A stretch of DNA of 64,000 nt from Candidatus Binatia bacterium (GTDB taxonomy: Bacteria > Desulfobacterota > Binatia > UBA9968): NCBI GenBank assembly GCA_046757725.1, contig JBHHYU010000008.1:230-64229 (forward strand), read 5' to 3'. Position 1 is the first letter of the stretch. Every line of letters starts with the position of its first letter. The notes under the pieces are model-generated. The model did no database searches and was not told the origin of the DNA. It saw only the letters and a list, made by a program, of their open reading frames with translations. Shown piece by piece: positions 1-22,977 of this stretch. The position numbers and the translations under genes are program-made.

Positions 1-1
1 C

Positions 2-367
2 AATAAGATTCCATGCCAATACTGCCATGTGAATGCGCGGCGGTCTTCGGTTGCCGGCATCCCTACCGTCGCACGCTGCATGGGTTGCCACAAGATCACG
101 GCAGCTAAGAAACCCGAAATCAAGAAACTAAAGGGCTACTGGGATAAGAAAGCAGCTATCGTCTGGAGTAAGGTTACCCGGGTGCCGGACTTTGTTTTCT
201 TTGAGCACTGGCCCCATGTCAGGGCTGGGCTCCATTGTCAGACCTGTCATGGTCAAGTTGAGAGCATGGAGAAAGTACGACAGGCAAAGGAGCTTTCCAT
301 GAGTGAGTGTGTGACCTGTCACCGTCAAAAGAAAGCGAGTATCGATTGCCTTACCTGCCACAGGTAA
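2..367 (+). CDS. actA: Multihaem cytochrome c, 5' partial (ActA-like pentahaem subunit of Alternative Complex III)
   Basis: The open frame reaches the window edge. The fragment carries five CxxCH haem-binding motifs (CQYCH, CMGCH, CQTCH, CVTCH, CLTCH) and lies directly upstream of an ActB-like gene. Confidence 0.6.
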   Translation, partial: NKIPCQYCHVNARRSSVAGIPTVARCMGCHKITAAKKPEIKKLKGYWDKKAAIVWSKVTRVPDFVFFEHWPHVRAGLHCQTCHGQVESMEKVRQAKELSMSECVTCHRQKKASIDCLTCHR

Positions 368-465
368 GGCAAAGTCAAAGGCCAATTGTTAGTAAGGAGA
401 CCAGGAAAAAGAAAAGAGACACGAGAGAGCAAGGAGCAGTGAGCGGTGATTGAGGAACTGAAACC

Positions 466-3387
466 ATGACGATGAACCGGCGGGAATTTTTGAAGATCGC
501 GGGCGCGGGAAGCGCCACGGCAGCCATGGTGGGCTGTGCGGCGGAGCCTCCTGAGAAGATTATACCGTACCTTATCCCGCACGAGGAGATCACCCCGGGA
601 AAGGCCACCTGGTACGCGACGACCTGTCGGGAATGTCCCGCAGGATGTGGAATGCTGGTCAAGACGATGGAAGGACGAGCCATAAAAGTGGAAGGTAATC
701 CCGACCACCCGGTCAACCAGGGCCGTCTCTGCGCACGAGGGCAGGCCAGCCTGCAGGGGCTCTACAATCCGGATCGGATTCGCCGGCCCCTAAAAAAAGG
801 GGCACAACACAAACTCCAACCGATCTCCTGGGAGGAGGGCGAAAAATTAGTCGCCGAACAGCTTACGAATCTGAAGGGCCGGGGAAATCGGATCGCATTT
901 GTCACTTCCCTTGTCACAGGGAGCATGGATCGTTTGATAGAAACATGGCTCCAGCAAATGGGAGGAGGCAAACATCTTCGCTACGAAACGATCAGCTATG
1001 AATCTCTCCGGGAGGCAAATCGACTCGCCTTCGGTGTTAAAGCCATCCCTTTCTACGACATCGAGCAGGCCGATCTAGTGTTCTCCTTTGGAGCCGACTT
1101 TCTGGAGACATGGCTCTCCCCGGTAGAATACTCACGCCAGTTTTCCTCAATGCGGACTTACCGGGAGGGTCGGATGGGGCGCTTCGCCTATATCGGCCCC
1201 CGTCTCTCTCTTACGGGAGCAAACGCCGACGAGTGGATCACTCTGCGCCCGGGAACGGAGGGGTTCCTCGCGTTGGGCATGATCCATGTTATTCTCAGGG
1301 ACACGTTGAGGAAATCCCTGCCTGATAAGGAGGACGAGGGACTCCGAAAGCTGACAACTCCCTTTACCCCCAGCAAGGTCGCAGATCTCACCGGGATATC
1401 AGCGGATAAGGTCCAGGTTTTGGCACGAGCTTTTGCTCGGGCACGCCCCAGTCTAGCGTTGGCGGACGGCAAGGGTTCCAACGGAACTGAGACCTGCCTG
1501 GCAGTCAACCTCCTTAACTATGTTGCCGGCAACGTTGGCCGGACCATCCGCTTCGCTAAGACATCAGCGGCAGGCCACCTTTCGTCCTATCACGAGATGC
1601 GAGACCTCATAAAAGCTATGGAGGAAGGGAAAGTCTCCGTTTTACTTCTTGCCGGGGTAAATCCGGTCTTCACGCTTCCGGAAGGAGAACGCTTTAAAAC
1701 CGCGATGGAGAAGGTCCCCTTAGTAGTGAGTTTTTCGAGTTTTCTTGATGAAACGGGGGCCGCAGCCAACCTGATCCTGCCGGATCATACTTTTCTAGAG
1801 AGTTGGGGAGACTACGAGCCCTGGGATGGTGTAACCGGGTTGCAGCAGCCAACCATGCAGCCCTTGTACGATACCAGGAACCTGGGCGACCTGCTTCTTT
1901 CGGTGGCAAAGCGGGCCGGTGCAAAAAATAGCTTCCCGTGGGAAAACTTTCATGCCTACCTGAGAGAGCAGTGGACAAAACGGCACCAGCAGCTCAAACA
2001 TACTGACAACTTTGAGGAGTTCTGGACGGGAACACTTCAGCGGGGCAGCCTTCAAGCCTCTATGGCACCACGAGACGTCCAGCTTAGCCCTGAACTCTTT
2101 CAGAGTCGATTTGAGTCTCCAAAATTTATCGGAGAAAAAGAGGCATTCATACTAACTCCCTATGTCTCACCCCTCCTTTATGATGGGCGCATGGCGAATC
2201 GTCCCTGGCTCCAGGAGCTCCCAGACACATTGACGCAGATTGTCTGGGACAGTTGGCTGGAGATCCATCCCACCGACGCCAAGCGATTGGGGGTGGAAGA
2301 AGGAGGGTTAATTCGACTACAGTCTCCAGCAGGTCACATCCAGCTGGCCTCGCATATTTCGGGTGGTGTACGACCAGGGACAGTGGCCGTACCTGTTGGG
2401 CAAGGACATACTGGTTTTGGCCGTTATGCGGAAGGACGCGGCGCTAATCCGATTCCCCTTCTCTCCCCGGAACCGGAACCGGTTTCCGGGGGGCTTCGCT
2501 GGAACAGTACCCGAGTTTTCGTCTTTCCTACGGGCAAGCGGCGGCCTTTTGCCTCGGTTGAAGGAAGCGCCCGTCCCCATAAGAGAGAGATCATCCAGAC
2601 CGTTTCCCTGGCTACACTGCAAAGAGACGGTCATGGCGAGAAACCTCCGGACCTTCTTCAGATGTATCCGGAGCATTCCCATCCGGAGCATCGTTGGGGC
2701 ATGGCGATCGACCTCAACGCCTGCATTGGCTGTGGAGCCTGCGTAGCTGCCTGCGCCGCTGAGAACAACATCCCTGTCGTGGGGAAAGACGAAGTGCTCA
2801 AGGGACGTGAAATGTCCTGGATCCGGATCGAACGAGTCGACGAAGGGGAGGCCGGCTATCCCGATCAACACTTCCTCCCCATGCTCTGCCAGCAATGCGA
2901 TAAGGCGCCGTGTGAGCCAGTTTGTCCGGTCTACGCGACCTACCACAGTCCGGAAGGACTTAACGCCCAGGTCTACAATCGCTGCGTCGGAACACGATAC
3001 TGTTCCAACAACTGTCCTTACAAGGTTCGAAGATTCAACTGGTTTACCGCAGAGTGGCCTGAGCCGCTACAGCTCCAACTCAACCCGGATGTCACGGTCC
3101 GGACCATGGGGGTTATGGAAAAGTGTACATTTTGCGTGCAGCGTATCCGACACGAGGAGTTGACGGCGAAAGAAGAGGGACGCCGTGTCAAGGATGGTGA
3201 GATCAGCCCTGCATGCGCACAAACTTGCCCAACCCAGGCTATAGTTTTTGGAGATATGAAAGATCCCGGGAGCAGGGTGTCCAAGCAGGCGGCGAGCCCA
3301 CGAAATTATCGAGTCTTGGAGCATCTGAACACGCAACCGGCAATCAACTATCTTAAGAAGATCAAGCCCGGCCCTGTGGAGGATTAG
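466..3387 (+). CDS. actB: ACIII ActB-like subunit: Tat-exported molybdopterin-oxidoreductase-like domain fused to a 4Fe-4S multicluster domain (973 aa)
   Basis: The N-terminus has a twin-arginine motif (RREFLKIAGAG). The large MopB-like domain is followed by four Cys clusters (CIGCGACVAAC, CQQCDKAPCEPVCP, CVGTRYCSNNCP, CTFCVQR...CAQTCP). The gene context is actA upstream and an NrfD-like gene downstream. Confidence 0.75.
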   Translation: MTMNRREFLKIAGAGSATAAMVGCAAEPPEKIIPYLIPHEEITPGKATWYATTCRECPAGCGMLVKTMEGRAIKVEGNPDHPVNQGRLCARGQASLQGLYNPDRIRRPLKKGAQHKLQPISWEEGEKLVAEQLTNLKGRGNRIAFVTSLVTGSMDRLIETWLQQMGGGKHLRYETISYESLREANRLAFGVKAIPFYDIEQADLVFSFGADFLETWLSPVEYSRQFSSMRTYREGRMGRFAYIGPRLSLTGANADEWITLRPGTEGFLALGMIHVILRDTLRKSLPDKEDEGLRKLTTPFTPSKVADLTGISADKVQVLARAFARARPSLALADGKGSNGTETCLAVNLLNYVAGNVGRTIRFAKTSAAGHLSSYHEMRDLIKAMEEGKVSVLLLAGVNPVFTLPEGERFKTAMEKVPLVVSFSSFLDETGAAANLILPDHTFLESWGDYEPWDGVTGLQQPTMQPLYDTRNLGDLLLSVAKRAGAKNSFPWENFHAYLREQWTKRHQQLKHTDNFEEFWTGTLQRGSLQASMAPRDVQLSPELFQSRFESPKFIGEKEAFILTPYVSPLLYDGRMANRPWLQELPDTLTQIVWDSWLEIHPTDAKRLGVEEGGLIRLQSPAGHIQLASHISGGVRPGTVAVPVGQGHTGFGRYAEGRGANPIPLLSPEPEPVSGGLRWNSTRVFVFPTGKRRPFASVEGSARPHKREIIQTVSLATLQRDGHGEKPPDLLQMYPEHSHPEHRWGMAIDLNACIGCGACVAACAAENNIPVVGKDEVLKGREMSWIRIERVDEGEAGYPDQHFLPMLCQQCDKAPCEPVCPVYATYHSPEGLNAQVYNRCVGTRYCSNNCPYKVRRFNWFTAEWPEPLQLQLNPDVTVRTMGVMEKCTFCVQRIRHEELTAKEEGRRVKDGEISPACAQTCPTQAIVFGDMKDPGSRVSKQAASPRNYRVLEHLNTQPAINYLKKIKPGPVED

Positions 3388-4716
3388 ATGTCTCAGCTCA
3401 CATACAGCCAGGTCGATCAGGACATCCTTCGGGTCATGAGGAAACCCGGGTGGCGCTACTACACATTGCTATTTCTCGACCTCATCGTTTTAGGATGGGG
3501 TGCTTATGCCTGGCGATATCAGATAGTGCACGGCATGGGGGTCTCAGGACTTACCCACCCGGTGATGTGGGCGATCTACATTACCAACTTCGTCTTCTGG
3601 GTGGGCATAGCCCATTCGGGGACTTTGATATCAGCTATTCTCTACCTATTTCGCGTTCGGTGGCGAGCCGGCGTTTACCGGACTGCCGAAGCTGTTACAA
3701 TCTTTGCCCTTTTCACAGCCGGCCTCTTTCCGATCATTCACCTCGGTCGTCCCTGGTTCTTTTACTGGCTTCTCCCCTATTCTCAGGTGGGCGGCCTTTG
3801 GATCAACTTTCGCTCCCCTTTGGTCTGGGACGTCTTTGCAGTGATGACCTACATGATTATCAGTATCCTCTTTTTCTTTACCGGTCTGGTCCCGGACATG
3901 GCCATCGCTCGGAACAAGACTACGGGATGGCGGCATCGGCTTTACACCTTTATGGCCCAGGGTTGGCAAGGAACCGACCGGCAGTGGCGTCACTACAAGG
4001 CCGCTTACCTCTTTCTGGCAGCCCTGGCTACTCCACTGGTCATCTCGGTCCACAGCGTAGTCTCCTGGGATTTTGCCCAGACCATTGTCGCAGGTTGGCA
4101 CAGTACTATCTTTGCCCCCTATTTTGTTGCAGGCGCAATCCATTCAGGCCTAGCCATGGTGATCACCCTGCTTATTCCGGTCCGGAGAATCTTCCGCCTC
4201 GATGCCTATATCACTCAGAGACACCTGGAGAATCTGGCAAAGCTGATCATCCTCACCGGTCTCATCGTCGGATACGCCTACGTGGTGGAGACCTATATTA
4301 CCTGGTACAGCAATAACATCCCGGAATGGCAACGCTTCGTTTTCAACGTGACGGGAGCATACGCCATTCCGTTCTGGATCATGATTCTTTTTAACTCTCT
4401 CGTTCCTCTCCTCTTCTTCGTCCAGCGCATCCGCACCAGCACCCCCTGGCTCTTCGGGATTGCGATCCTGATCAATATCGGAATGTGGATGGAACGGTTC
4501 GTGATCATCGTTGGTTCATTGGCCCATGGGTACGATCCCCATTCCTGGGGGCTTTACTTTCCAACCTGGGTGGATATCAGCATCACCCTCGGCAGCTTCG
4601 CCTGGTTCTTTTTCTGGTTTCTCTTGTTCACAAAGTTTCTCCCCGTGGTTTCTATGGTGGAGGTGAAGGAAGAGTTGCCGCCTCCTATAAAGAAGATGGA
4701 AGGAAAGGAGGAATAA
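3388..4716 (+). CDS. actC: NrfD/PsrC-like polytopic membrane quinone-binding subunit (ActC-like)
   Basis: 442 aa, highly hydrophobic with many TM segments. The start codon directly abuts the actB stop (TAGATG), and a GGAGGA ribosome-binding site lies upstream. Confidence 0.7.
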   Translation: MSQLTYSQVDQDILRVMRKPGWRYYTLLFLDLIVLGWGAYAWRYQIVHGMGVSGLTHPVMWAIYITNFVFWVGIAHSGTLISAILYLFRVRWRAGVYRTAEAVTIFALFTAGLFPIIHLGRPWFFYWLLPYSQVGGLWINFRSPLVWDVFAVMTYMIISILFFFTGLVPDMAIARNKTTGWRHRLYTFMAQGWQGTDRQWRHYKAAYLFLAALATPLVISVHSVVSWDFAQTIVAGWHSTIFAPYFVAGAIHSGLAMVITLLIPVRRIFRLDAYITQRHLENLAKLIILTGLIVGYAYVVETYITWYSNNIPEWQRFVFNVTGAYAIPFWIMILFNSLVPLLFFVQRIRTSTPWLFGIAILINIGMWMERFVIIVGSLAHGYDPHSWGLYFPTWVDISITLGSFAWFFFWFLLFTKFLPVVSMVEVKEELPPPIKKMEGKEE

Positions 4717-4717
4717 A

Positions 4718-5233
4718 ATGGCTGCCTTATCGGACGGCCTTGTCGGGAGTTTTGCCCATCTTGATAGCCTGCTTACGGCCATCGAAGGATTGCGTCAAGC
4801 CGGTTATCACGAGATACAAGCCCTCTCTCCCGTCCCTCACCATGCCATCGACAAGGCACTGGAGAAACCGACTAGTCCGGTGCGTGTCTTTACGCTGATC
4901 GGTTGTCTTCTTGGCGCCATCACCGGCTTTGTGCTGACCATAGCCACTTCACTCCATTACCCGCTCATCACCGGCGGCAAACCGATTGTCTCGATCCCTC
5001 CCTTCCTCATCATCGTCTTCGAACTCACGATTCTGTTCGGCGGGCTCCTGACTCTCGGGGGCATGCTTTTGAATGCTCGTCTACCACAGGTACAGATCGT
5101 TCCAGCCTATAATCCTCGCTTCTCAGAGGATCGGTTCGGTTTGTGGGTCCGCTGCGAGACCAACAATTATAACGCCGTAACCGAACTGCTCCGAAACGCA
5201 GGTGCGGAGGAGATACGCCATGCCAAGGATTAG
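4718..5233 (+). CDS. actD: ActD-like small membrane subunit of ACIII (DUF3341-like)
   Basis: 171 aa with two central TM helices. There is a perfect AAGGAGG ribosome-binding site 8 nt upstream, and the position after actC matches the ACIII gene order. Confidence 0.6.
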   Translation: MAALSDGLVGSFAHLDSLLTAIEGLRQAGYHEIQALSPVPHHAIDKALEKPTSPVRVFTLIGCLLGAITGFVLTIATSLHYPLITGGKPIVSIPPFLIIVFELTILFGGLLTLGGMLLNARLPQVQIVPAYNPRFSEDRFGLWVRCETNNYNAVTELLRNAGAEEIRHAKD

Positions 5234-5269
5234 CTACATCGTCAAGAACGACGCCAAGGGAAGGCGCTG

Positions 5270-6550
5270 ATGCAAGAGGGCTTCGAAAAATGTTGGAACA
5301 TAAGGCCTAGGGTCTCCGAGGGATTGACCTGGGGATTGACCGGGTTATTGGGCGTTGGCTTGGTAGCGTTTGGCGCCAGCCTCCAACTTGACCCGATACG
5401 GGCCTGGCAGATCTATCTGGTCAACTTCCTTTTCTGGGCGGGACTGGCCCAAGGCGGAGTGGTTTTCGCTGCAGTTTACCATGTGGTTGGAGCAAAATGG
5501 GGAGCTTCCATAAGGCGCATGGCCGAGGGGTTCGCCGTCTTTCTCCCAGTGAGCCTCATCATGTTCTTGCCGCTCTTCTTCGGTCTCAGATTATTTTTCG
5601 ACCGGGTCCTTGAGCTGAACCCGGACCGTGGTGCATGGTTTGATCCCAGGTTTATATTTATCAGGGGTGTTCTGGGATTAGGATCGATGACGGTCTTAAG
5701 CCTATTTTTCGTTTACTACTCACTCCGGCCCGAGGTGGGGTTGGCCCTTAAACAAAACCTCATGCCTCGCCGCTGGTTCTACGACTGGTTGGCAGAGGAA
5801 TGGGGGGGCGGCGAGCTGATCGAGATTCAGCGAAGTCGCCGGGGAATGAGTGTGCTCGCGGCAGGTGTACTTTTGGCATACCCGATGATCTACAGCTTCA
5901 TGGCCTTCGATCTGATCATGGCGCTGGATCCGTTCTGGTACAGCTCCCTCTTTGGAGGCTACTTTTTTATCAGCACCTTCTATCTCGGCCTCGCCGGCCT
6001 AGCTGTGGTGGCAGTGCTGATCCGGCGGAACCTCGGCATTTCGGTGGTCACTGACGCCCACCTCTCGGATCTGGGCAAGCTCCTCCTGGGATTCGACCTG
6101 ACCTATGTCTCCATGCTCTGGTCACAATACATCGTCATATGGTACGGGAATCTTCCTGAAGAAACCCACTTCATCGTGCTTCGTCTGTGGGAAAGGCCCT
6201 GGGCGTTTCTTTCTTGGGGTGTACTGATTCTCAGTTCTTTGATCCCTTTCCTGGTGTTTCTGAGCAAGCGGGCCAAACAGATACCTTGGATTTTGCTGAC
6301 GGTCAGCCTATTGATCGCAACAGGGTTATGGCTCGAGCGATATGTCCTGATAGCGCCGTCCATAGGGCAACACGGGTCGCTCTCCTTTAGCCTGTTGGAG
6401 ATCGGAGTAACTTTAGGCTTCTTGGGAGCAGCCGGGTTAAGCTACCTTTTCTTTTTAAAGCACTTTCCCGTGCTTCCGCTTATCCAATTGCCGGTTTCGG
6501 CTGTTCCAGGTGAAACAGATGTTGTTGAAGAAGTCTCACCCAATGTTTAG
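5270..6550 (+). CDS. actF: Second NrfD-like membrane subunit (ActF-like)
   Basis: 426 aa polytopic membrane protein with NrfD-like composition. A GGGAAGG ribosome-binding site lies upstream. Confidence 0.6.
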   Translation: MQEGFEKCWNIRPRVSEGLTWGLTGLLGVGLVAFGASLQLDPIRAWQIYLVNFLFWAGLAQGGVVFAAVYHVVGAKWGASIRRMAEGFAVFLPVSLIMFLPLFFGLRLFFDRVLELNPDRGAWFDPRFIFIRGVLGLGSMTVLSLFFVYYSLRPEVGLALKQNLMPRRWFYDWLAEEWGGGELIEIQRSRRGMSVLAAGVLLAYPMIYSFMAFDLIMALDPFWYSSLFGGYFFISTFYLGLAGLAVVAVLIRRNLGISVVTDAHLSDLGKLLLGFDLTYVSMLWSQYIVIWYGNLPEETHFIVLRLWERPWAFLSWGVLILSSLIPFLVFLSKRAKQIPWILLTVSLLIATGLWLERYVLIAPSIGQHGSLSFSLLEIGVTLGFLGAAGLSYLFFLKHFPVLPLIQLPVSAVPGETDVVEEVSPNV

Positions 6551-7130
6551 AAATTTGCCGTTAAGGCTGCCTACCATGGTAGGGAAAACGATAAGGCAGC
6601 TGCAAAGCTGTTCTCGGCGTCGGAAGCGATTTGCTCTCAGAAGGGCCGGATTGTGCTTGGCTACCTTAGCGGGCCTGTTGTGGCTCGGTGTCAGTATGGC
6701 CTACGGATGGCCCTGGAGCACTGACATGGAGAAACAGCCTTCAGTCAAGCCACAGGAGGCACCCCTAGCGCCACCGCCCAACTCGATTCCAAGGAAAGGC
6801 AGAGAGCCGCGCATGAATCGGATTGAGGCGGGAAAGCGGTTGCGCAATCCCATAGACCCAACGGCCATGTCAGTTGAACACGGCAAGAAGCTTTTTCAGG
6901 TCTACTGCGCCCTTTGTCACGGACCCGATGCGAAGGGCGGGGGCCCTGTGGCCAAAAAATTTGTCCCACCTCCCGACCTGACTTTGGAAATATTCCGCAA
7001 GCGAACCGACGGCTTTATCTACGCAACCATTCGAGACGGAGGACCCCTCATGCCCAGCCAAGCGGAGGCCGTTTCTCCAAAAGAAAGATGGGACATCGTC
7101 AACTACCTCCGCACCTTGCAGGAGAAGTAA
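6510..7130 (+). CDS. actE: Monohaem membrane-anchored cytochrome c (ActE-like)
   Basis: Single CALCHG motif and an N-terminal TM anchor preceded by an Arg-rich stretch. The true start is probably an internal ATG (6543 or 6576), because the 6510 start overlaps actF by 40 bp. Confidence 0.55.
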   Translation: MKQMLLKKSHPMFRNLPLRLPTMVGKTIRQLQSCSRRRKRFALRRAGLCLATLAGLLWLGVSMAYGWPWSTDMEKQPSVKPQEAPLAPPPNSIPRKGREPRMNRIEAGKRLRNPIDPTAMSVEHGKKLFQVYCALCHGPDAKGGGPVAKKFVPPPDLTLEIFRKRTDGFIYATIRDGGPLMPSQAEAVSPKERWDIVNYLRTLQEK

Positions 7131-7425
7131 CGTACGTGAGTGCCTTAGAGAGCTTCTCCCTCCCGTTGCAAATCGAATAGTCTTTCGCAAATTTGGGAAA
7201 AGAGAGATTTTTAATTCTCAACCTCCGGAAGCATCACCCTAATCATCACCAGTTTATCCCAAGTTTTAACGTTCAGGTCAGTGGTATGTTTCTTGCGAAC
7301 CCCTCTTTCTAACTACCCGAGCAAAGGACCTCGCGGCATGGTGACCGAAACGTGTTTGGCGGCTAAATTGGATCGTACCGACAGGCACCGGTATCAGAGT
7401 GCAAACCAATGGTGGAGGCTTCTTC

Positions 7426-8154: not shown

Positions 8155-8176
8155 ACAATCTTGAGGAGGAATAAAA

Positions 8177-10819: not shown

Positions 10820-10840
10820 AGAGCGAGCTGGAGGATAGCT

Positions 10841-11437: not shown

Positions 11438-11441
11438 AGTC

Positions 11442-12968: not shown

Positions 12969-13018
12969 GGTCCGGCGCGTCGTCTTCTCTGATAGGGAAT
13001 CGTCACGGGGGTGAATAG

Positions 13019-13615: not shown

Positions 13616-13738
13616 ACCTTTGTGCTTCCAGGATTTCCGCCTACCGGCCTGTGAAAAAGTTTCCATAAGCGGCCATTTTTTTCTTGACAAAGGGTTAGCG
13701 ATGCTTTAAACAGACTCATAAGAGTTAAACGACCTATT

Positions 13739-13749
13739 AGGTCTTTTGA
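13739..13749. promoter_or_regulatory. Exact 11-mer AGGTCTTTTGA, copy 1 (overlaps the Rrf2 RBS region, -17..-7 from ATG)
   Basis: An identical 11-mer recurs at 14258-14268 in the next intergenic region. A CTATTAG/CTAATAG half-site lies just 5' of each copy. Confidence 0.4.
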
Positions 13750-14229: not shown

Positions 14230-14257
14230 AAATTTTTGTGTCTCTAATAGACTAAAA

Positions 14258-14268
14258 AGGTCTTTTGA
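14258..14268. promoter_or_regulatory. Exact 11-mer AGGTCTTTTGA, copy 2 (128 bp upstream of the nxrC-like start)
   Basis: This is an exact repeat of 13739-13749. Chance recurrence of an 11-mer within ~300 bp of intergenic DNA is improbable. Confidence 0.4.
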
Positions 14269-14395: not shown

Positions 14396-15976
14396 ATGAG
14401 ACGGTGTTTTTTGTTGATTGCCGGTGTGTTCCTCCTGTTACGTGCAGCAGGAGTCGGGACCTCCGCCGAATTAAAATCTCCTCCCCCTTCACCTAAACTC
14501 CTTGCCCTCGGAAAGCAGACTTACAACAAACATTGTGTCGCGTGCCATGGAGTGAATGGACGAGGAAATGGAGAAGCGGCCTACCTTCTCTATCCCAAAC
14601 CCCGTAATTTTGTGGCCGCAAGGTACCGCCTAGTGTCGACCTGGGAACGCATCCCGACCGACCAGGATCTCTTCAACACGATTTCGCGCGGCATGCCGGG
14701 ATCAGCCATGCCCTCGTGGGGGCATCTCTCGTCAAAGCAGCGCTGGGGGCTTGTTCATTACGTAAAGTCATTTGCTGAAAGGCCACTAACCACCAAGCCT
14801 CAGAGGAGACCAGGGGCTGATGGCAGCGATGGTCAAGGGGTCATCTATGTTGGGCCGGAGCCCTCTTACGATGCCACTGCCAAGGCGCGTGCTAAAGAGC
14901 TTTTCCGAGAGGCGTGTGCCTCCTGTCACGGTGCAACGGCAAAAGGGGATGGCGTGAAAAAGCAGTGGGACGTGGAAGGCTTTCCCACGCGCCCACGTGA
15001 TCTCACAGCCGGCGTTTTCAAGGGAAGTCCGGACCCCTTGCAACTGTACCGCCGCATCATCGCAGGCATTCCGGGTAGCCCCATGCCGATGAACAGCTGG
15101 GCTTATGGTAATGACGCCTGGCACCTCGTTCACTTTATCCGCTCCCTCTCAAGTGATGAGCAACGAGAGCGCGTGGAGATGAAAAAATTTCAGATCGTGG
15201 CCACGCGCGTAAAGAAGGTACCGGACAATCCCGACTCCGGCACTTGGCGTCTCGCCCAACCGGTAAACCTTCATCTGATGCCGCTCTGGTGGCGCTCCCA
15301 GCGGCCGGAAGAATTGACCGTGCGGGCACTCTACGACAGGAAGGAATTGGCTTTACTTTTAGTCTGGGCCGATCAGACGCATGACCATACAGCGATCCGG
15401 CCACAGGATTTCCGGGATGCTGCAGCGGTAGAGTTCTCGCTTACCAGGGATCCTCCTTTTTTCGCCATGGGCGAGAAGGGGAAATCCGTCAATATCTGGA
15501 TGTGGAAATCGGAGCGGCAGGCAGACCTTGAACCTGCCTTTCAGGACCTTGACAAGATCTACCCTAACCTCGGCATCGACTCTTACCCTAATCTATTACG
15601 CTCGCCGGTGGAACAGCCTTCGCGTAACGCGCTCACGCTCAAGTCAGACAAGACCTTCGTGACCGGATGGGGGGCGGGGAATATTGTTTCTGACCCCCAG
15701 CGCAAGAGCCCAGCCGAGGATCTCACGGCGCAGGGATTCGGCACGCTGCGAGCACGACCGCGGATCGACCAGAAGGTCAATGCGAAGGGCATTTATGGTG
15801 TCGGTGCCTACCGGGTCATCTTCCGGCGGGCGTTAAAGCCCAGCGGTAAGCACGCGCCGAAGTTTCAACCCGGCACGGCTGTGCCGGTGGCCTTTGCGGT
15901 CTGGAACGGCAGCGCCGGAGACCGTGACGGAAAAAAATCTGTGACCATCTGGCAGGAGCTGAAGATCGCAAAATGA
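14396..15976 (+). CDS. NxrC-like gamma subunit: Sec-signal, N-terminal dihaem cytochrome c fused to a C-terminal EB_dh-like (type-II DMSO-reductase haem-b subunit) domain
   Basis: Strong GGGAGGAGG ribosome-binding site and a signal peptide. Two cbb3/c552-type haem motifs (CVACHG, CASCHG) are followed by ...WNHLVHFIRSL. The C-terminal ~260 aa ends in VAFAVWNGSAGDRDGKKSVTIWQEL, which recalls from memory the gamma subunits of EbdC/SerC/NxrC enzymes. The gene lies immediately upstream of the alpha subunit. Confidence 0.55.
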   Translation: MRRCFLLIAGVFLLLRAAGVGTSAELKSPPPSPKLLALGKQTYNKHCVACHGVNGRGNGEAAYLLYPKPRNFVAARYRLVSTWERIPTDQDLFNTISRGMPGSAMPSWGHLSSKQRWGLVHYVKSFAERPLTTKPQRRPGADGSDGQGVIYVGPEPSYDATAKARAKELFREACASCHGATAKGDGVKKQWDVEGFPTRPRDLTAGVFKGSPDPLQLYRRIIAGIPGSPMPMNSWAYGNDAWHLVHFIRSLSSDEQRERVEMKKFQIVATRVKKVPDNPDSGTWRLAQPVNLHLMPLWWRSQRPEELTVRALYDRKELALLLVWADQTHDHTAIRPQDFRDAAAVEFSLTRDPPFFAMGEKGKSVNIWMWKSERQADLEPAFQDLDKIYPNLGIDSYPNLLRSPVEQPSRNALTLKSDKTFVTGWGAGNIVSDPQRKSPAEDLTAQGFGTLRARPRIDQKVNAKGIYGVGAYRVIFRRALKPSGKHAPKFQPGTAVPVAFAVWNGSAGDRDGKKSVTIWQELKIAK

Positions 15977-16058
15977 AGAGCGCAGCAGAAATAGAATTCA
16001 CAAAGCGGAATGGGGCAGGGGGTCTTGATGCTGACCAGTGGATTCCAGAAGGAGAGTG

Positions 16059-19000
16059 ATGACCATGAACGATGAAAAACTACAAGATCGGAATCGCTTG
16101 ACGCGCCGGGATTTCCTGCGCTGGATGGGTATCGGGAGCGGCACAGCAGTACTCAGCACAGGGTTGCCGTTGAGGCTTCTGGCTGCTGCGCGCCCCGGCG
16201 AGAATCCCCTCGCTGGTTCGGTGGACCGTAACTGGGAAAAAATATATCGCAATCAGTACAAGTATGATCGTGTTTTCGACTGGGTCTGCTCCCCCAATGA
16301 CACTCATGCCTGTCGAGTACGGGCCTATGTCCGAAATGAGATCGTGACGAGACTCGGATCAACCTACGACTACCAGACTTACGCCGACCTTTACGGTAAC
16401 AAAGCCACCCCGAACTGGAACCCACGGCAGTGCGCCAAGGGCTATACTTTCCATCGGGTGATCTACGGACCCTACCGGCTCAGGCATCCCATCGTCCGCA
16501 AAGGCTGGAAGGCCTGGGCCGACGCCGGCTTCCCTGAGCTGAGACCGGAAAACAAAGCGAAGTACATGTTCGACAACCGCGGCCAGGACGAGTTTGTTCA
16601 GATCTCCTGGGAGGATGCGCTTCAAAGCATCGCCAAGGCCATCGTCGCCATTTCGACACGTTACAGCGGTGAGGGGGGAAAGAGGCGGTTGCTGGCCCAG
16701 GGCTACCAGCCGGAAATGGTTGAGGCTGCCGCGGGTGCCGGCACTCGTTGCGTCAAGATGCGTGGAGGCATGGGCCTTCTAGGGGTCATCGGCAAATACG
16801 GGTTGTACCGGCTCAACAATTCGCTTGCGCTCCTCGATGCGAAGATTCGAGGGGTAGGTCCAGAAAAAGCACTAGCTGGCCGCAACTGGTCTAATTATAC
16901 CTGGCACGGAGATCAGGCGCCCGGCCACCCATGGGTGCACGGACTGCAAACATCGGACTGCGATTTCAACGACTTGCGCTTCACCAAGCTCATTATCTTG
17001 GACGGAAAGAATCTCGTAGAAAATAAGCTACCCGATGCCCACTGGTTCATCGAGTGCATGGAGCGTGGGGGAAAAATTGTCGTTATCGCCCCGGAATACG
17101 GACCTCCTGCAACCAAGGCTGATTACTGGATTCCCATTAGGCCCGAGACCGACACGGCACTCTGGCTTGGTGTTACTAAACTGATTTTCGAAAACAAGTG
17201 GTACGATGAGACATTCGTCAAACGCCATACCGATTTCCCCCTCCTCGTCCGTACCGATACGTTGAGGCGTCTGCGGGCACATGAGATCTTCCCGAACTAT
17301 TCCTCCAACCTCTCCCCTGATGGGCCTTCGATGAAGATCCAAGGTCTTACACGGGAGCAACACTCCAAACTCGGTGATTTTGTAATCTGGGACCAGAAAA
17401 ACAATGGCCCAGCCGCGCTCACGCGAGATGATGTGGGAGAGACGATGGCTAAAAAGAGGCTGGACCCAACCCTGGAAGGAACGTTCAAGGTCAAGCTTGT
17501 CGACGGTAAAGAGGTGGAGGTCGCCACGCTTTGGACGCTCTATCGGACCCATCTTCGGGACTATGACCTTGACACGGTATCAGAGATCACGCATGCACCC
17601 AAGAACCTGATCGAACAGCTTGCCAAGGACATCGGAGCGATAAAACCAGTTGCGATCCACCAGGGCGAGGGGATCAATCACTGGTTCCACGGTACCGAGA
17701 TGAACCGTGCAGCCTACCTGCCACTGATGCTAACCGGCAACATTGGCAGGCCGGGAGCCGGGGGCCATACATGGGCAGGAAATTACAAAGCAGGTCTTTT
17801 TCAGGGTTCCCCATGGACCGGGCCGGGCTTTAAGGGGTGGGTAGCCGAGGACCCATTCCACCCGAATTTGGACCCCAAGGCCCATGGAAAAAACGTAAAG
17901 ATCCATGGCTACACTAAGGGCGAGGAGCCAGCCTACTGGAACCATGGGGACCGGGCATTGATTCTCAACACACCGAAGTTCGGCCGTAAGAATTTTACCG
18001 GCGAGACCCACATGCCAACACCGACCAAAGCCATTATCTTTAACAACGTTAACCTGATCAATAATGCCAAGTGGGCCTACGGGATGATTAAGAACGTCAA
18101 CCCCAACATCGAGATGATCGTCTCGCTGGATATTCAGATGACTGCCTCTATTGAGTATGCAGACATTGCGCTGCCAGCGAATAGCTGGATGGAGTTTGAA
18201 GGGTTGGAGATGACGGCGAGCTGCTCAAATCCCTTCTTGCAGATCTGGAAGGGAGGTATTTCACCGGTGTTTGATAGCAGGGATGACCTGACGATTCTGG
18301 CTGGCATCGCCGGCGAGCTTGCCGAGATTACGGGAGAGAGCCGCTTTCGGGATCATTTTAAGTTCGCTGCGCCCGAACAGCGCGGGATCTATATCCAGCG
18401 CCTGCTCGACACCTGCACGACCACGGCAGGGTATAAACTCAAGGACATTATGGCCGGCAAGTATGGACCCCCGGGGGGCAGCCTGTTGAACTTCCGCACC
18501 TACCCTCGCATCCCCTTCTATGAGCAGATCCATGATTCAGAGCCGTTCCACACGGACACGGGGAGACTCCACGCCTATGCTGATATCCCTGAGGCAATCG
18601 AGTACGGGGAAAACTTCATCGTGCATCGGGAGGGACCAGAGGCTACGCCCTACTTGCCCAACGTCATTGTCAGTTCAAACCCTCACATTCGCCCGGAGGA
18701 TTACGGGATCCCTCTAACCGCGGAACACTGGGATGAACGCACCGTCCGCAACGTCAAGCTTCCATGGAGCAGAGTCAAAGAGACGAAAAATTTCCTGTGG
18801 GAGAAAGGCTTCCATTTCTACTGCCTCACTCCGAAGACACGCCACCGGGTCCACAGTGGTTGGTCAAACGTCGATTGGCACATGCTCTATGACTCAAACT
18901 TCGGCGACCCTTACCGTCTTGATAAGCGTGCGCCAACGGTGGGAGAGCACCAGCTCCATATCAATCCTCAGGCAGCACGGAAATTAGGGATCAACGATGG

Positions 19001-19538
19001 CGATTACGTTTACGTGGATGCCAACCCGGCCGACCGCCCCTACCTCGGCGCAACGCCCAGCGATCCTTTCTACAAGGTATCGCGCTGCATGCTGCGAGTG
19101 AAATACAACCATGCTTATCCCTATAACATCGTCATGATGAAGCACGCCCCGTTCATCGCCACAGAAAAGAGCGTCAAGGCACACGAAACACGCCCCGACG
19201 GCCGCGCCCTATCGGAAAATACCGGCTACCAGGCCAATCTCCGCTACGGCTCCCAGCAATCCGTCACCCGTAATTGGCACATGCCAATGCACCAAACGGA
19301 CAACCTTTTTCACAAGTCAAAGGTCTTTATGGGGTTTATCTTTGGCGGTGAAGCCGACAACCACGCGATCAACACCGTACCGAAGGAAACCCTGGTGCGC
19401 GTCACGAAGGCTGAGGACGGAGGCCTTGGCGCCAAAGGCATCTGGAAACCGGCCACCACCGGCTACACGCCGGACAACGAGAACGACTTCATGAAACGAT
19501 ATCTGGCAGGGGAGCTGGTCAAGGTGCCGGGCAAATAG
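16059..19538 (+). CDS. nxrA: Tat-exported NarG-type molybdopterin oxidoreductase alpha subunit, periplasmic NXR/NarG-like (NxrA candidate, ~1160 aa)
   Basis: Twin-arginine motif TRRDFLRWMGIGSG. The N-terminal Cys/His FS0-type motif is VCSPNDTHACRV. The size matches periplasmic NxrA (~1150 aa) rather than type-II enzymes (~920-980 aa) or cytoplasmic NarG (~1250 aa). A gamma-like subunit lies upstream and a beta subunit downstream. The alternative ATG at 16065 has better ribosome-binding-site spacing. Confidence 0.7.
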   Translation: MTMNDEKLQDRNRLTRRDFLRWMGIGSGTAVLSTGLPLRLLAAARPGENPLAGSVDRNWEKIYRNQYKYDRVFDWVCSPNDTHACRVRAYVRNEIVTRLGSTYDYQTYADLYGNKATPNWNPRQCAKGYTFHRVIYGPYRLRHPIVRKGWKAWADAGFPELRPENKAKYMFDNRGQDEFVQISWEDALQSIAKAIVAISTRYSGEGGKRRLLAQGYQPEMVEAAAGAGTRCVKMRGGMGLLGVIGKYGLYRLNNSLALLDAKIRGVGPEKALAGRNWSNYTWHGDQAPGHPWVHGLQTSDCDFNDLRFTKLIILDGKNLVENKLPDAHWFIECMERGGKIVVIAPEYGPPATKADYWIPIRPETDTALWLGVTKLIFENKWYDETFVKRHTDFPLLVRTDTLRRLRAHEIFPNYSSNLSPDGPSMKIQGLTREQHSKLGDFVIWDQKNNGPAALTRDDVGETMAKKRLDPTLEGTFKVKLVDGKEVEVATLWTLYRTHLRDYDLDTVSEITHAPKNLIEQLAKDIGAIKPVAIHQGEGINHWFHGTEMNRAAYLPLMLTGNIGRPGAGGHTWAGNYKAGLFQGSPWTGPGFKGWVAEDPFHPNLDPKAHGKNVKIHGYTKGEEPAYWNHGDRALILNTPKFGRKNFTGETHMPTPTKAIIFNNVNLINNAKWAYGMIKNVNPNIEMIVSLDIQMTASIEYADIALPANSWMEFEGLEMTASCSNPFLQIWKGGISPVFDSRDDLTILAGIAGELAEITGESRFRDHFKFAAPEQRGIYIQRLLDTCTTTAGYKLKDIMAGKYGPPGGSLLNFRTYPRIPFYEQIHDSEPFHTDTGRLHAYADIPEAIEYGENFIVHREGPEATPYLPNVIVSSNPHIRPEDYGIPLTAEHWDERTVRNVKLPWSRVKETKNFLWEKGFHFYCLTPKTRHRVHSGWSNVDWHMLYDSNFGDPYRLDKRAPTVGEHQLHINPQAARKLGINDGDYVYVDANPADRPYLGATPSDPFYKVSRCMLRVKYNHAYPYNIVMMKHAPFIATEKSVKAHETRPDGRALSENTGYQANLRYGSQQSVTRNWHMPMHQTDNLFHKSKVFMGFIFGGEADNHAINTVPKETLVRVTKAEDGGLGAKGIWKPATTGYTPDNENDFMKRYLAGELVKVPGK

Positions 19539-19572
19539 AGGGAGCTTGCAAGATAGACCGAGGAGAACTCAG

Positions 19573-19869
19573 ATGCCTTATGACGATCCTGATCCCACGG
19601 ATCCCAATATCTTGGTGGGGGTAGCCCTGCCGGCCGATGCGGAAGTAATATGCGAGATGGCCTACGTCTTTGCCGAAGAATTTATCCGAATGGGGTACGA
19701 TCGAGAGCGAGTGCTGCAGGTTTTCAAGAACCCGTTTTACACCGGTCCGCACAATGCTTACCGGGACCTGGGCGAAGAGAAAGTCCAGTCCATTATCGAG
19801 GAGTGTATCCACGCATGGGGCGGTGTCTGTTTTGTTGATTGCGACGACGGAAAGGAGACAGAACCATGA
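19573..19869 (+). CDS. Small acidic Cys-containing protein of unknown function, translationally coupled to nxrB
   Basis: 98 aa with a GAGGAG ribosome-binding site upstream. Its stop overlaps the nxrB start (ATGA). Cys residues include a C-terminal CFVDCDD. It occupies the entire nxrA-nxrB intergenic space. Confidence 0.5.
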   Translation: MPYDDPDPTDPNILVGVALPADAEVICEMAYVFAEEFIRMGYDRERVLQVFKNPFYTGPHNAYRDLGEEKVQSIIEECIHAWGGVCFVDCDDGKETEP

Positions 19870-21131
19870 GTCAGGTTTACAACTGGCAACTCGGCCGCAA
19901 GATGGATTATCCCTTTCCGGCCGCATATCCGAAGCGGCAGTTCGCCTTTGTCTTTAATATCAACCGCTGCATCGCCTGCCAGACCTGTACCATGGCCTGC
20001 AAATCAACCTGGACCTTCAGCAAGGGCCAGGAACATATGTGGTGGGCCAACGTCGAGACCAAACCTTATGGTGGTTATCCCCAGTTTTGGGACATGAAGA
20101 TCCTGCGGCTTCTCGAGGAAGCCAACCCCGGAGGGCAGCAATGGTCGGGAACCCCTTCCGGGAACTCCAAAAACCCCTACGGTCGTTTTGACGGACAAAC
20201 TATTTTTGAGGCTAAGAAAGCGCTTCAGCCCGGGAGCTCACGGGTCCTAGGTTACCTTCCCACCGACGAGGAGTGGAACTTTCCCAACATCTATGAGGAC
20301 AATCCGCTCGGCAAGAAAGGGGTGCCCAACCAATTCGACACAACCGGAGTGGAGCTGCCCGTACACAAGACCTGGTTCTTTTATCTGGCGCGTATTTGCA
20401 ACCACTGTACCTACCCCGGGTGTCTGGCAGCCTGCCCGCGCAAGGCCATTTACAAACGCCCTGAGGACGGCATCGTCCTCATCGACCAGAAGGAGTGCCG
20501 TGGCTACCGTAAGTGCGTGGAGGCCTGCCCTTACAAAAAGGCAATGTATCGGGGCAATACCCGAGTGACCGAGAAATGCATTGCCTGCTACCCACGAGTC
20601 GAGGGTAAAGACCCCGAGAGTGGTGGCCAGCCTATGGAAACGCGTTGCATGGCGGCGTGCGTGGGCCAGATGCGCATGCAGGGCCTAGTCAAAATGAACC
20701 GGGACGGCACCTGGACCGAAGACCGACACAATCCGATCTACTACCTCGTGCATGTGGCCAAAGTAGCCCTACCGCTTTATCCCGAACTCGGCACTTTACC
20801 CAATGGTTACTATATTCCTCCCCGCTGGGTACCGCGACCTTATCTTCGGCAGATGTTCGGTCCAGGCGTTGACAACGCGATCGAGCGTTATATTAACCCG
20901 GACCGAGAACTCCTTGCGGTCCTGCAGCTTTACCGGCGCTCCAACCGAATCATCTTCCGCTATGAAATTAAGAAGGGGCCAAAGATCTATGAGGCCACGC
21001 ACCGCGGCCGGAAAGTGACGCTGTACAACGACACCATTATCGCTTATGGCCGAAACAACAAGGAGATCTTCCGAACCACTGTTGAGGAGCCGGTTTATGT
21101 ACGGTCGAAAAAACATGCCAACTCGATATGA
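19866..21131 (+). CDS. nxrB: NarH/NxrB-type Fe-S beta subunit (4 clusters, NxrB-like insertion), 421 aa
   Basis: The N-terminus MSQVYNWQLGRKMDYPF...FAFVFNINRCIACQTCTMACKSTW resembles periplasmic NxrB. Four Cys clusters are present, including the inserted CIACYPRVEGKDPESGGQPMETRCMAAC. A GGAAAGGAGA ribosome-binding site lies upstream. Confidence 0.75.
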   Translation: MSQVYNWQLGRKMDYPFPAAYPKRQFAFVFNINRCIACQTCTMACKSTWTFSKGQEHMWWANVETKPYGGYPQFWDMKILRLLEEANPGGQQWSGTPSGNSKNPYGRFDGQTIFEAKKALQPGSSRVLGYLPTDEEWNFPNIYEDNPLGKKGVPNQFDTTGVELPVHKTWFFYLARICNHCTYPGCLAACPRKAIYKRPEDGIVLIDQKECRGYRKCVEACPYKKAMYRGNTRVTEKCIACYPRVEGKDPESGGQPMETRCMAACVGQMRMQGLVKMNRDGTWTEDRHNPIYYLVHVAKVALPLYPELGTLPNGYYIPPRWVPRPYLRQMFGPGVDNAIERYINPDRELLAVLQLYRRSNRIIFRYEIKKGPKIYEATHRGRKVTLYNDTIIAYGRNNKEIFRTTVEEPVYVRSKKHANSI

Positions 21132-21217
21132 AGAGATAAAGAGCCCGTATTCCGTTCGTTTTCATTTCCTCCTGCGCAACGTCCGGCGCCTTCAGGTCAC
21201 CCACAGTTCAGGAGATC

Positions 21218-22024
21218 GTGATGAAACCTGAAAATCTGAGAAAAGAACAAGAGGTCAGGGAGGGCGATCTAGCCCTCTGCCGAGCCACTCTGTATAGCGC
21301 GCTGGCGCTCGGCTTCCGACCGCCCACAGAGGAAACATTAACTCGCCTCGCCTCTACGGAGGGTGCAACGGTTTTGGCCGGCGCAGCGGCGCTGCTGGAC
21401 GGACAGCACCAGGTAACCCTCACCTCCGCCGCAGAGGATCTCAGCAAAATAAAAAAAACCTCCGTATCAGAGCTCGAAGTCTCATTCTGGCGCCTATTCG
21501 GCCATACCGTACGCGGCCAGGTACCCCTATATGAAACCGAGTACGGTGTTGATTCTCTTTTCCAGCAACCGCAGGAATTGGCAGACCTATTAGGTTTTTA
21601 CCACGCATTCGGTCTCGCCTTAGACCCGAAAGAACACGAACGGGCAGATCATGTTAGTTGCGAACTCGAGTTTCTCTCCTTTCTTGCCCTCAAAGAGGTC
21701 TACGGCTTGGAGCAACGGGACGACCCTATGCTGGAAGAGACACGTAAGGCCGCGCGCACCTTCTTACGGGATCATCTCGGTCGGTTCGCGCCTGCCTTCA
21801 CCAGGAAGCTTTCTCGTGAAGACCGGGAGGGCTTTTACGGGGCTCTAGGTGAGCTCTGCGCGAGGTTTGTGATCGAAGATTGTACCCGACTCAGCGTGTC
21901 GGTCGGCCCAGAGAGTTTAGGCTTGCGTCCAGCTGCTGAAGATCAAGTGCCGATGGCATGTGACAATGGAGCGGAGTGCACTGAGTTGTCCGGCGCTTGC
22001 GAACAGGAAATAATGGAAAAATGA
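21218..22024 (+). CDS. TorD/NarJ/DmsD-family redox enzyme maturation chaperone (delta subunit)
   Basis: Contains the family motif E-H-E-R-A-D-H-V-S-C-E-L-E-F-L-S-F-L (DHxxxELEFLxxL), typical of TorD/NarJ. The gene lies downstream of the beta subunit. Confidence 0.7.
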   Translation: MMKPENLRKEQEVREGDLALCRATLYSALALGFRPPTEETLTRLASTEGATVLAGAAALLDGQHQVTLTSAAEDLSKIKKTSVSELEVSFWRLFGHTVRGQVPLYETEYGVDSLFQQPQELADLLGFYHAFGLALDPKEHERADHVSCELEFLSFLALKEVYGLEQRDDPMLEETRKAARTFLRDHLGRFAPAFTRKLSREDREGFYGALGELCARFVIEDCTRLSVSVGPESLGLRPAAEDQVPMACDNGAECTELSGACEQEIMEK

Positions 22025-22977
22025 GCCCTGGGGTTCTTCTCAGTTACGACTCCAGTTTAATGGAAGAGGCTGTCTTCCTCGCTTTGCAGGGACATCCGGC
22101 CGCCGTGGAATTTTTCGGTGAGCGCAACAAACTCTACGAAATCAGTGATTCGGAGGAACAAGAGCGTGCCTTTCGGGATTTCCATTGCGCCTGGTTTACC
22201 CGTTTAGAATTCGCCGACCAGATCGAAAAGGCAGTCAACGAACACCCTTTTCTTACTTCCAGTGTCAGGCGCTGTGTCGTAGCTTGCGTCTCAAGAAAGC
22301 AAGATGAAGGAGCTGAACTCTTTGTCGGTTCCCAAGCAGAAAACAGCGAAAAAGAGCGTCGTACGGTGCGAATCCTATTGAGACCTGAATCATTTCTTGA
22401 CTCCCTTACTCTACTAAGACTGCTTCGCCATGAACTTTTGCACATCACGGACATGCTCAGCACTAGCTTCGGCTATGACCCGATCCTACCGAAGGCACCA
22501 GGCGGGCCCGCCTATGACCAATTACTACAAGACCGCTACCGTGTCCTGTGGGATGCAACGATAGATGGTCGAATGGTGCGGCGCGGCTGGGCGCCCGATT
22601 CGATCCGTGTAGAGCGCCTTTGTGAATTCCGCCATGCCTTTCCCATGTTCAGGGAAGCGGCCTCTCAGCTGTTTGATCGCTTTTTCGACCAAGAGCCACA
22701 TACGCATGGCGAATTGGTTACATTCGCCTGCAACCCCATGGCCGCCGTAGATGACTCACCAATGACGCGCAGCCCCGGAAGCCGGTGCCCTCTTTGCGGT
22801 TTTCCAACGTATGCGTTCGAGCCGGCGCCTGAGCACCTGCCTCTAGAGGTCCTCTCTCAGATCACTCAAGACTTTCCGCGGTGGCGCCCAACTCAGGGTC
22901 TTTGCACCCAGTGTGCGGATCTTTACCGGGCACGTTGGGCCTCGTCTCGTGCAGAGAGTCCTTTTCCGGGAACATAG
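22021..22977 (+). CDS. Hypothetical protein with HExxH motif and C-terminal CxxC...CxxC zinc-ribbon, translationally coupled to the chaperone gene
   Basis: The ATGA overlap with the chaperone gene's stop indicates translational coupling. The motif LLRHELLHITD carries HExxH. The C-terminus holds CPLCGFPTYAF...CTQCADLY. I recognise no known family. Confidence 0.45.
   Translation: MSPGVLLSYDSSLMEEAVFLALQGHPAAVEFFGERNKLYEISDSEEQERAFRDFHCAWFTRLEFADQIEKAVNEHPFLTSSVRRCVVACVSRKQDEGAELFVGSQAENSEKERRTVRILLRPESFLDSLTLLRLLRHELLHITDMLSTSFGYDPILPKAPGGPAYDQLLQDRYRVLWDATIDGRMVRRGWAPDSIRVERLCEFRHAFPMFREAASQLFDRFFDQEPHTHGELVTFACNPMAAVDDSPMTRSPGSRCPLCGFPTYAFEPAPEHLPLEVLSQITQDFPRWRPTQGLCTQCADLYRARWASSRAESPFPGT

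Follow-up and report, generated by a model that had tools for sequence, protein, structure and literature searches.

The first 23 kb of a 64,000-nucleotide stretch of a Candidatus Binatia genome (assembly GCA_046757725.1, contig JBHHYU010000008.1, positions 230 to 64,229; the whole stretch is called the window below) carries three sets of respiratory genes one behind the other: genes for an alternative complex III (ACIII), a cassette built around a Nap-like periplasmic molybdenum (Mo) enzyme, and, together with an rrf2 regulator gene, an operon for an enzyme resembling nitrite oxidoreductase (NXR). Do these encode one electron-transfer system or several? Our analysis favors the second answer. 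The block is probably, though by no means certainly, a mosaic particular to this lineage, made up of three respiratory modules that can stand by themselves. Each of them is conserved as a unit elsewhere, and they are most likely regulated separately.

The block extends from position 2 to 22977 as 20 consecutive plus-strand genes, in the order actA (cut by the window start), actBCDFE, dihaem cytochrome c, Nap-like molybdoenzyme, NapG-like, NapH-like, second NapG-like, rrf2 and NXR-like operon, and it may continue 5' of position 1; judging from relatives, genes for a cytochrome c, COX1, COX2 and a cupin, and perhaps for a further Mo enzyme, would be expected there. All the gene types named in a preliminary description of the block are there, and on that strand. 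The same description took the junctions to be short or overlapping throughout. This is so within the modules, where they measure 0–86 bp (the exception being 98 bp between actA and actB), but the largest spacers, of 268, 140 and 166 bp, coincide with the module boundaries and are AT-richer (GC content 0.48–0.49). The first of these, between the ACIII genes and the Mo cassette (7131–7398, 268 bp), has a GC content of 0.478 and no terminator-like fold stands out in it; folding of the inter-module spacers found no stable terminator, and a scan for sigma-70 promoters and intrinsic terminators gave counts not above those in shuffled sequence. Because these counts resemble those of shuffled sequence and no stable terminator fold was found, read-through from module to module is neither demonstrated nor excluded.

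The preliminary description had proposed a comparison of synteny with other genomes. Adjacency of the three modules turned out not to be conserved. None of the 29 NXR-centred contigs with at least 5 kb of upstream sequence has the Mo cassette or ACIII upstream of the NXR genes; in the closest NxrA relative (90% identity) a nitronate-monooxygenase-like gene stands before rrf2. The cassette side gives the same result. Among 17 close relatives of the cassette (83–90% identity in its catalytic subunit, MoA), 13 of which have at least 9 kb of downstream and 10 at least 8 kb of upstream sequence, no NXR occurs within the flanks examined, and ACIII is near the cassette in one only (L001), where it lies downstream, after rrf2, flavoprotein, cupin and cytochrome c genes, that is, in a different order. 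L002 and L161 lie on one contig, where some 16 kb separates the cassette from ACIII and the two are encoded on opposite strands. Among about 170 related loci, not one showed the exact arrangement of the window.

These counts bear directly on the alternative that the 23 kb are one co-transcribed super-operon encoding a dedicated coupled chain or supercomplex from quinol and cytochrome c to nitrogen oxides, or a reverse-electron-transport chain for nitrite oxidation. Twenty genes in a row on one strand, with no clear terminators in the spacers, are what such an operon would look like, but in addition to its absence from the related loci the proposed unit is parted by AT-richer spacers of 140–268 bp, its NXR portion has a regulator and operator-like sites of its own, and its Mo cassette brings a NapGH-like quinol dehydrogenase and so has no need of ACIII. 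There is some precedent for it: relatives string type II Mo enzymes, haem-copper oxidase and ACIII together, and Nar/Nxr genes have been reported beside ACIII-like clusters (PMC10732223). On balance we consider a super-operon unlikely. The physically linked electron-transfer chain of the preliminary description thus survives in part: exchange of electrons between its components via quinol and periplasmic cytochrome c is plausible, and the functional picture is reasonable for that reason, but relatives lend no support to a single tightly co-localized unit.

The neighborhoods of ACIII in relatives supply part of what weighs against a mosaic of independent modules. In relatives whose ActB is 65–72% identical to that of the window, the ACIII operon typically reads COX2-COX1-cytochrome c-actABCDFE-dihaem cytochrome c. 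A type II dimethyl sulfoxide (DMSO)-reductase-family enzyme precedes this operon in L162/L163 (its alpha subunit is only 37% identical to the window NxrA), the NarJ-like chaperone of a type II enzyme does so in L164 and L168, and in L168 an AioA-like gene (3200–6447; Rieske_3 and molybdopterin domains, 890 amino acids [aa]) lies directly upstream of the COX-ACIII genes. Because ACIII thus recurs beside periplasmic Mo enzymes and oxidase genes, proximity may be selected rather than incidental. About 10 of the 80 cassette loci likewise have genes for ACIII or for Rieske/cytochrome b proteins beside the cassette, the latter in loci of the Planctomycetota type. Read-through transcription is moreover possible, since all the genes lie on one strand and the spacers contain no convincing intrinsic terminator. 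Finally, MoA falls below the NapA equivalog thresholds and has Ile and Thr or His at the positions of NapA Met308 and Glu156, so that nitrate is not assured as its substrate.

Published clusters show a similar pattern. Nar, Nxr and Nap genes have been described beside ACIII-like clusters in metagenome-assembled genomes (MAGs) of Planctomycetota and KSB1 (PMC10732223). The window resembles these in having a nitrogen-oxide molybdoenzyme beside an ActABCDEF-type cluster, there sometimes accompanied by oxidase genes, but differs in lineage and gene order, and in having two Mo systems on one side of ACIII plus a dedicated Rrf2. Cytochrome-c-linked periplasmic Mo enzymes near a complex-III-type module are a recurring and architecturally fluid theme, of which the window is one instance.

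A further possibility, compatible with the mosaic reading, is that the Mo cassette was acquired horizontally, and comparatively recently, by insertion between the ACIII and rrf2-NXR operons, and that its position is incidental. The composition of the cassette fits horizontal acquisition: its GC content (7399–13615) is 0.584, against 0.546 and 0.555 in its neighbors and 0.528 in the rest of the window, it lies between the AT-richer border spacers, and the GC content at third codon positions of MoA is 0.705. The difference is modest, however, and the cassette borders showed neither repeats nor genes of mobile elements. The most similar cassettes occur in loci with a GC content of 0.58–0.66, and cassettes of this kind are found in many unrelated contexts and phyla; yet the most similar one found, that of L001, is also close to rrf2 and ACIII, which could mean an older association. 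The cassette also occupies the place where the ACIII operons of relatives carry a different dihaem cytochrome, missing from the window. Taken together these points leave a recent insertion a serious but tentative proposal, somewhat less probable than its converse.

Compositional steps at module borders could also arise if the juxtaposition were a chimera, produced in assembly or binning, of contigs from different organisms, and the closest homologs of the different modules do come from MAGs with different taxonomic labels. But the spacers consist of unique sequence with nothing unusual about it, the housekeeping genes run on without a break in the flanking sequence, the independent contig L001 also links cassette, rrf2 and ACIII, and an ActB 100% identical to that of the window is present in an independent assembly (P0121). 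We regard a chimera as very improbable.

Under the mosaic reading each module should make sense by itself, and this can be followed gene by gene. The identification of the first module as ACIII, proposed in the preliminary description, was borne out, with all the characteristic subunits found: ActD, a fused ActB with a twin-arginine translocation (TAT) signal, two NrfD-type subunits, a multihaem ActA and a monohaem ActE. Only the 3' part of actA (2–367; Pfam Cytochrome_C7) is visible, its 5' end lying beyond the window; the 122 visible codons include five CxxCH motifs, and the product is 71–73% identical to ActA in the ACIII operons of relatives. ActB (466–3387) joins a molybdopterin-like B1 domain to an iron-sulfur (Fe-S) B2 domain behind an RREFL motif and matches the B subunits of solved ACIII structures (8K9E_B, 6LOD_B, 6F0K_B and 6BTM_B) with 436–502 bits. 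It is followed by actC (3388–4716), encoding an NrfD-type membrane quinol-binding subunit with nine hydrophobic segments (Pfam NrfD, 86 bits; 85–89% identity in relatives), by actD (4718–5233; Pfam PF11821, 160.6 bits against a cut-off of 25.7), and by actF (5270–6550), encoding a second NrfD-like membrane subunit whose best PDB match is 6F0K_F, an ActF (126.7 bits). The last gene, actE (6510–7130), encodes a monohaem cytochrome c with one CxxCH that matches 6F0K_E, 6BTM_E and 6LOD_E; its true start is probably near 6636, and from 6654 onward the product is 73% identical to the ActE of L161. From these matches actABCDFE is predicted to encode a quinol:cytochrome c oxidoreductase.

The six subunit types are those of the ACIII complexes of Rhodothermus marinus (6F0K), Flavobacterium johnsoniae (6BTM) and Roseiflexus castenholzii (6LOD), with strong sequence matches, but two features set the window apart from these solved complexes. 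Its gene order is A-B-C-D-F-E, which is also the order in relatives, and its ActB keeps four cysteines of an FS0 motif (C-x2-C-x3-C...C, namely C54, C57, C61 and C89). When the window ActB was compared with 120 homologs (53–100% identity), each of the four was retained in 119–121 of the 121 aligned sequences, whereas they are absent from all four solved ActBs. The Mo-ligand position is variable among the aligned homologs (S, A, G or N). This pattern points to a subfamily of ACIII that has an additional Fe-S cluster and does not perform Mo catalysis. Another difference is that the ACIII operons of relatives have a trailing dihaem cytochrome c after actE and the window has none: the relatives' protein has no orthologue in the window and is only 22% identical to the window's dihaem cytochrome. 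In some relatives the first ACIII operon is followed, after a few kb, by a second, divergent ActA/ActB-like pair (30–34% identity; L162/L163, 20093–22922; L168, 21951–22922).

The preliminary description had assigned the dihaem cytochrome c gene at 7399–8154 to ACIII as an extra subunit. It is instead the first gene of the Mo cassette. Its product is a class-I cytochrome with a signal peptide and two CxxCH motifs (two Pfam Cytochrome_CBB3 domains), and orthologs 68–81% identical to it occur in close relatives labeled Nitrospinota, where they always precede MoA. A genome scan with MoA yielded 80 loci, from Nitrospinota, Myxococcota, Planctomycetota, Poribacteria, Entotheonella, Sericytochromatia and other groups. 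Counted over those with enough flanking sequence (75, 71 or 65 of the 80, depending on the gene), a cytochrome c gene is upstream of MoA in 65/75, a NapG-like gene downstream in 69/71, and a NapH-like gene in 63/65. This position, together with orthology, places the dihaem cytochrome in the cassette. The alternative of an ACIII subunit was rejected on orthology, given the 22% identity just mentioned. By analogy with Nap systems the protein would be the functional analogue of NapB, though it belongs to class I (Pfam Cytochrome_CBB3/Cytochrom_C) and does not match NapB.

MoA itself (8177–10819) is an 880-aa, predicted TAT-exported (RRNFL motif) catalytic subunit of the bis-molybdopterin guanine dinucleotide (bis-MGD) type. 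How like NapA is it? Its TAT signal and several active-site residues agree with the Nap-like label it had been given; its scores do not reach the NapA family cut-offs. Against the NapA equivalog models PRK13532 and TIGR01706 it scores 322.6 and 297.8 bits, where 904 and 930.55 are required, and its score against the Fdh-alpha model (310.8 bits) is close to these; Desulfovibrio desulfuricans NapA is matched with 266.6 bits. The Mo-ligand region NARMCMTSAV aligns with NPRLCMASAV of that NapA, and (in D. desulfuricans numbering) the equivalents of Cys140, Asp155, Gln346 and Arg354 are invariant in 121 family members, Met141 being kept in 120 of them. The position of Met308 is Ile in all 121, and that of Glu156 is Thr in 89, His in 30 and Ala in 2. 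Judged by the curated models, MoA is therefore not a bona fide NapA. A formate dehydrogenase is an unlikely alternative identity: the Mo-ligand motif of MoA is the Cys-Met of NapA, and formate dehydrogenases have (Se)Cys-His at these positions.

Three genes follow MoA in the NapG-NapH-NapG order. They had been called a NapGH-type quinol dehydrogenase, and NapG and NapH are indeed their best models, but all three score below the equivalog thresholds. G1 (10841–11437) encodes a NapG-like periplasmic polyferredoxin with the TAT motif RRRFL (118 bits, cut-off 269). H (11361–12968, with a probable start at 11442) encodes a NapH-like membrane Fe-S protein (110 bits, cut-off 234) with six or seven hydrophobic segments, fused to a membrane-anchored C-terminal domain of about 170 aa. 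G2 (13019–13615) encodes a second NapG-like polyferredoxin (98.6 bits, same cut-off as G1) with no clear twin-arginine motif; many related loci have such a second gene downstream of H. The extra domain of H (12390–12968) has a signal-like segment, an HHxxGxPHYxYxENYPQ motif and a C-terminal membrane anchor, and gave no significant match in Pfam or PDB. It is fused to the NapH-like protein in the close Nitrospinota-labeled relatives too, and residues 344–523 of H match a separate 207-aa open reading frame (ORF) in 10 other loci.

The cassette can be compared with Nap systems that use NapGH, such as Wolinella succinogenes napAGHBFLD and E. coli napFDAGHBC, and with D. desulfuricans NapA (2NAP/2JIO). 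In common are a TAT-exported catalytic subunit with bis-MGD and a [4Fe-4S] cluster, the Cys-Met Mo-ligand motif with the Asp155, Gln346 and Arg354 equivalents, a periplasmic ferredoxin resembling NapG, a membrane Fe-S protein resembling NapH, and a partner cytochrome with two haems; our role assignments for H and G follow a published summary of NapGH roles (PMC12780646). On the other hand, MoA reaches only about one third of the NapA equivalog cut-offs and has the Ile and Thr/His substitutions described above, the partner cytochrome is a class-I dihaem protein and not NapB, the cassette is without napC, napD, napF and napL, and it has a second NapG-like gene and a NapH fused to an additional domain. 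No NapD-like gene was found in the window's cassette or as a recurrent neighbor in the 80 loci. Outside the cassette genes no neighbor family occurs in more than about 10 of these loci: the recurrent ones are confined to regulators, MoaA, cytochrome b and ACIII (each in at most 10/80), and denitrification genes are not among the conserved neighbors. A literature search found no paper that characterizes this cassette, although such a paper may exist outside what was searched. The cassette, along with the ACIII subfamily that retains FS0, is the most novel component of the block. It is of note that in L002 an AioA-like gene of the arsenite oxidase type (15392–18994; Rieske_3 and molybdopterin domains, 890 aa) adjoins the Mo cassette.

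The third module had been described as an NXR-like enzyme with a cytochrome-c-fused gamma subunit, and this description holds. The first structural gene, nxrC (14396–15976), encodes a fusion of a signal/anchor segment, two c-type haem domains (two CxxCH; Pfam Cytochrom_C twice) and a haem-b EB_dh domain; the c-haem part matches the dihaem cytochrome 6H5L_B of Kuenenia with 131.7 bits, and the EB_dh part matches NxrC (7B04_C) with 86.9 bits. The NxrA-like catalytic subunit (16038–19538, TAT motif TRRDFL) matches Kuenenia NxrA (7B04_B) over its full length (residues 20–1163 against 2–1146) with 1830.8 bits. Homologs 80–90% identical to it occur in MAGs of Rokubacteria, KSB1, Binatia, Limnocylindrales and Acidobacteriota, phyla without known nitrite oxidizers, and on this distribution the clade is a presumably widely transferred NXR-like enzyme. 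Its direction, nitrite oxidation or nitrate reduction, carries the same caveat as that stated for non-Nitrospinia Nitrospinota (PMC10839748).

Between nxrA and nxrB lies a conserved 98-aa gene (19573–19869), missed in the preliminary description, whose stop codon overlaps the nxrB start (ATGA). In relatives its sense frame is conserved better than any other frame, the gene is called at the same length in L165 and L166, and its product has 400 cluster representatives at E ≤ 1e-3 but no significant match in Pfam or PDB. That the 300-bp gap between nxrA and nxrB might be an RNA element was rejected because it encodes this conserved protein, which may be an unrecognized NXR accessory protein. The NxrB-like Fe-S subunit follows (19866–21131; 247 bits to the type II DMSO-reductase beta model; Fer4_11; 77–83% identity in relatives), then a NarJ/TorD-type assembly chaperone (21218–22024; Pfam Nitrate_red_del, 71.7 bits; TIGR03482, 104 bits) and finally orf326 (21997–22977), which has a HELLH (HExxH-like) motif and two C-terminal CxxC pairs, with no match in Pfam, NCBIfam or PDB. 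The last may be the counterpart of a "zinc-finger" protein that PMC3578206 mentions for NXR clusters.

A metagenome scan with the fused NxrC retrieved 80 contigs (68–83% identity), and the order nxrC-nxrA-nxrB-chaperone-orf326 is intact in all 19 that are long enough to show it. Like the periplasmic NXRs of Kuenenia stuttgartiensis (7B04), Nitrospira and Nitrospina, the unit combines a full-length NxrA homolog with a TAT signal, NxrB, a haem-b subunit of the EB_dh type and a chaperone of the TorD/NarJ type. Proteins resembling NxrC in which c-haem sites accompany a haem-b domain have been described before, as the "alt_NxrC" proteins of Nitrospina gracilis (PMC3578206). Unlike those NXRs, the unit in the window's clade also carries rrf2, the 98-aa gene and orf326, and the block has no separate, unfused nxrC.

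Is the NXR unit controlled separately? The rrf2 gene (13756–14229) encodes an Rrf2-family regulator with a three-cysteine cluster motif (Pfam Rrf2, 97.5 bits). About 30 of the 80 NXR contigs have a match to it immediately before nxrC (36–75% identity, at least 55% in 22), at a distance of only about 20–100 bp in relatives, and L165 has the same rrf2-NXR layout as the window. A 19-nt inverted-repeat, operator-like site, GACCTATTAGGTCTTTTGA, is located upstream of rrf2 (13731–13749, plus strand), and a second copy, GACTAAAAAGGTCTTTTGA, identical to it at 15 of 19 positions, is located upstream of nxrC (14250–14268, plus strand). The core pattern GACNNANNAGGTC has four matches in the 64 kb against 0.43 expected, three of them at the two rrf2-flanking sites. 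An inverted repeat in register with the first site, GGACTnAAnTnATCC, occurs once each, just upstream of rrf2, in 19 related loci (L084–L146). Conservation in register of the first site, upstream of rrf2, and the closeness of rrf2 to nxrC in relatives lead us to predict that Rrf2 regulates the NXR unit through this candidate operator, and that the unit has a control region of its own. Shared with the NsrR/IscR-type regulators are the winged-helix Rrf2 domain, the cluster of three cysteines and a candidate operator, an inverted repeat that overlaps the regulator's own promoter region; unlike them, the window protein scores below both equivalog cut-offs and its operator sequence is its own. In relatives the repeat follows a sigma-54-like motif, TGGTAC-N5-TTGC, where the window instead has an exact TTGACA.

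How might such modules work side by side? In the scheme we propose their only points of contact would be the quinone pool and the pool of periplasmic cytochrome c, which they share, and it is probably through periplasmic cytochrome c that they are linked. ACIII would oxidize quinol and reduce periplasmic cytochrome c. H, G1 and G2, by analogy with NapGH, NapB and NapA, would oxidize quinol and pass electrons via the dihaem cytochrome to MoA, which would reduce a periplasmic oxyanion, most probably nitrate. NXR would exchange electrons with cytochrome c via the two c-haems fused to NxrC, towards an oxidase or towards ACIII running in reverse. ACIII could thus either feed cytochrome c for reduction or move electrons from nitrite-reduced cytochrome c to quinone.

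Two linked possibilities go beyond the mosaic reading. The first is that the FS0-retaining ACIII could be a reversible cytochrome c/quinone hub, recurrently recruited beside periplasmic cytochrome-c-linked molybdoenzymes and haem-copper oxidase; in this lineage it could be the missing link from periplasmic NXR to the quinone pool, that is, a route for reverse electron transport. The second is that the cytochrome c-MoA-G-H-G cassette could represent a separate family of periplasmic enzymes that reduce or oxidize an oxyanion other than nitrate. We consider this extended reading a long shot, but it bears on a question still unsettled for Nitrospira- and Nitrospina-type nitrite oxidizers, namely how NXR is connected to the quinone pool. 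The locus and its relatives, with an NXR-like enzyme bearing c-haems on its gamma subunit close to ACIII and oxidase genes, offer concrete candidates. Should the modules prove ordinary and independent, the result is better annotation: three reusable units that annotation pipelines label inconsistently are now delimited, namely a Nap-like cassette of five genes that occurs in many phyla, an NXR-like operon of seven genes, predicted to be under Rrf2 control, in which two conserved genes had no annotation, and an ACIII subfamily with an extra Fe-S motif.

Elsewhere in the window, the minus strand carries a second, unrelated molybdoenzyme locus (51133–58752). It encodes the large subunit (788 aa) of a Mo-hydroxylase belonging to the xanthine/CO-dehydrogenase family, with adjacent ORFs of 159 and 291 aa that are presumed to be the small and medium subunits, and two XdhC/CoxI-type maturation proteins, one with a YHS domain. 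Also on the minus strand (47284–49721), a gene for a CrtC-like lipocalin-domain protein adjoins one for a UbiD-family decarboxylase, among housekeeping genes (FtsH, TilS, GlmM and PdxJ).

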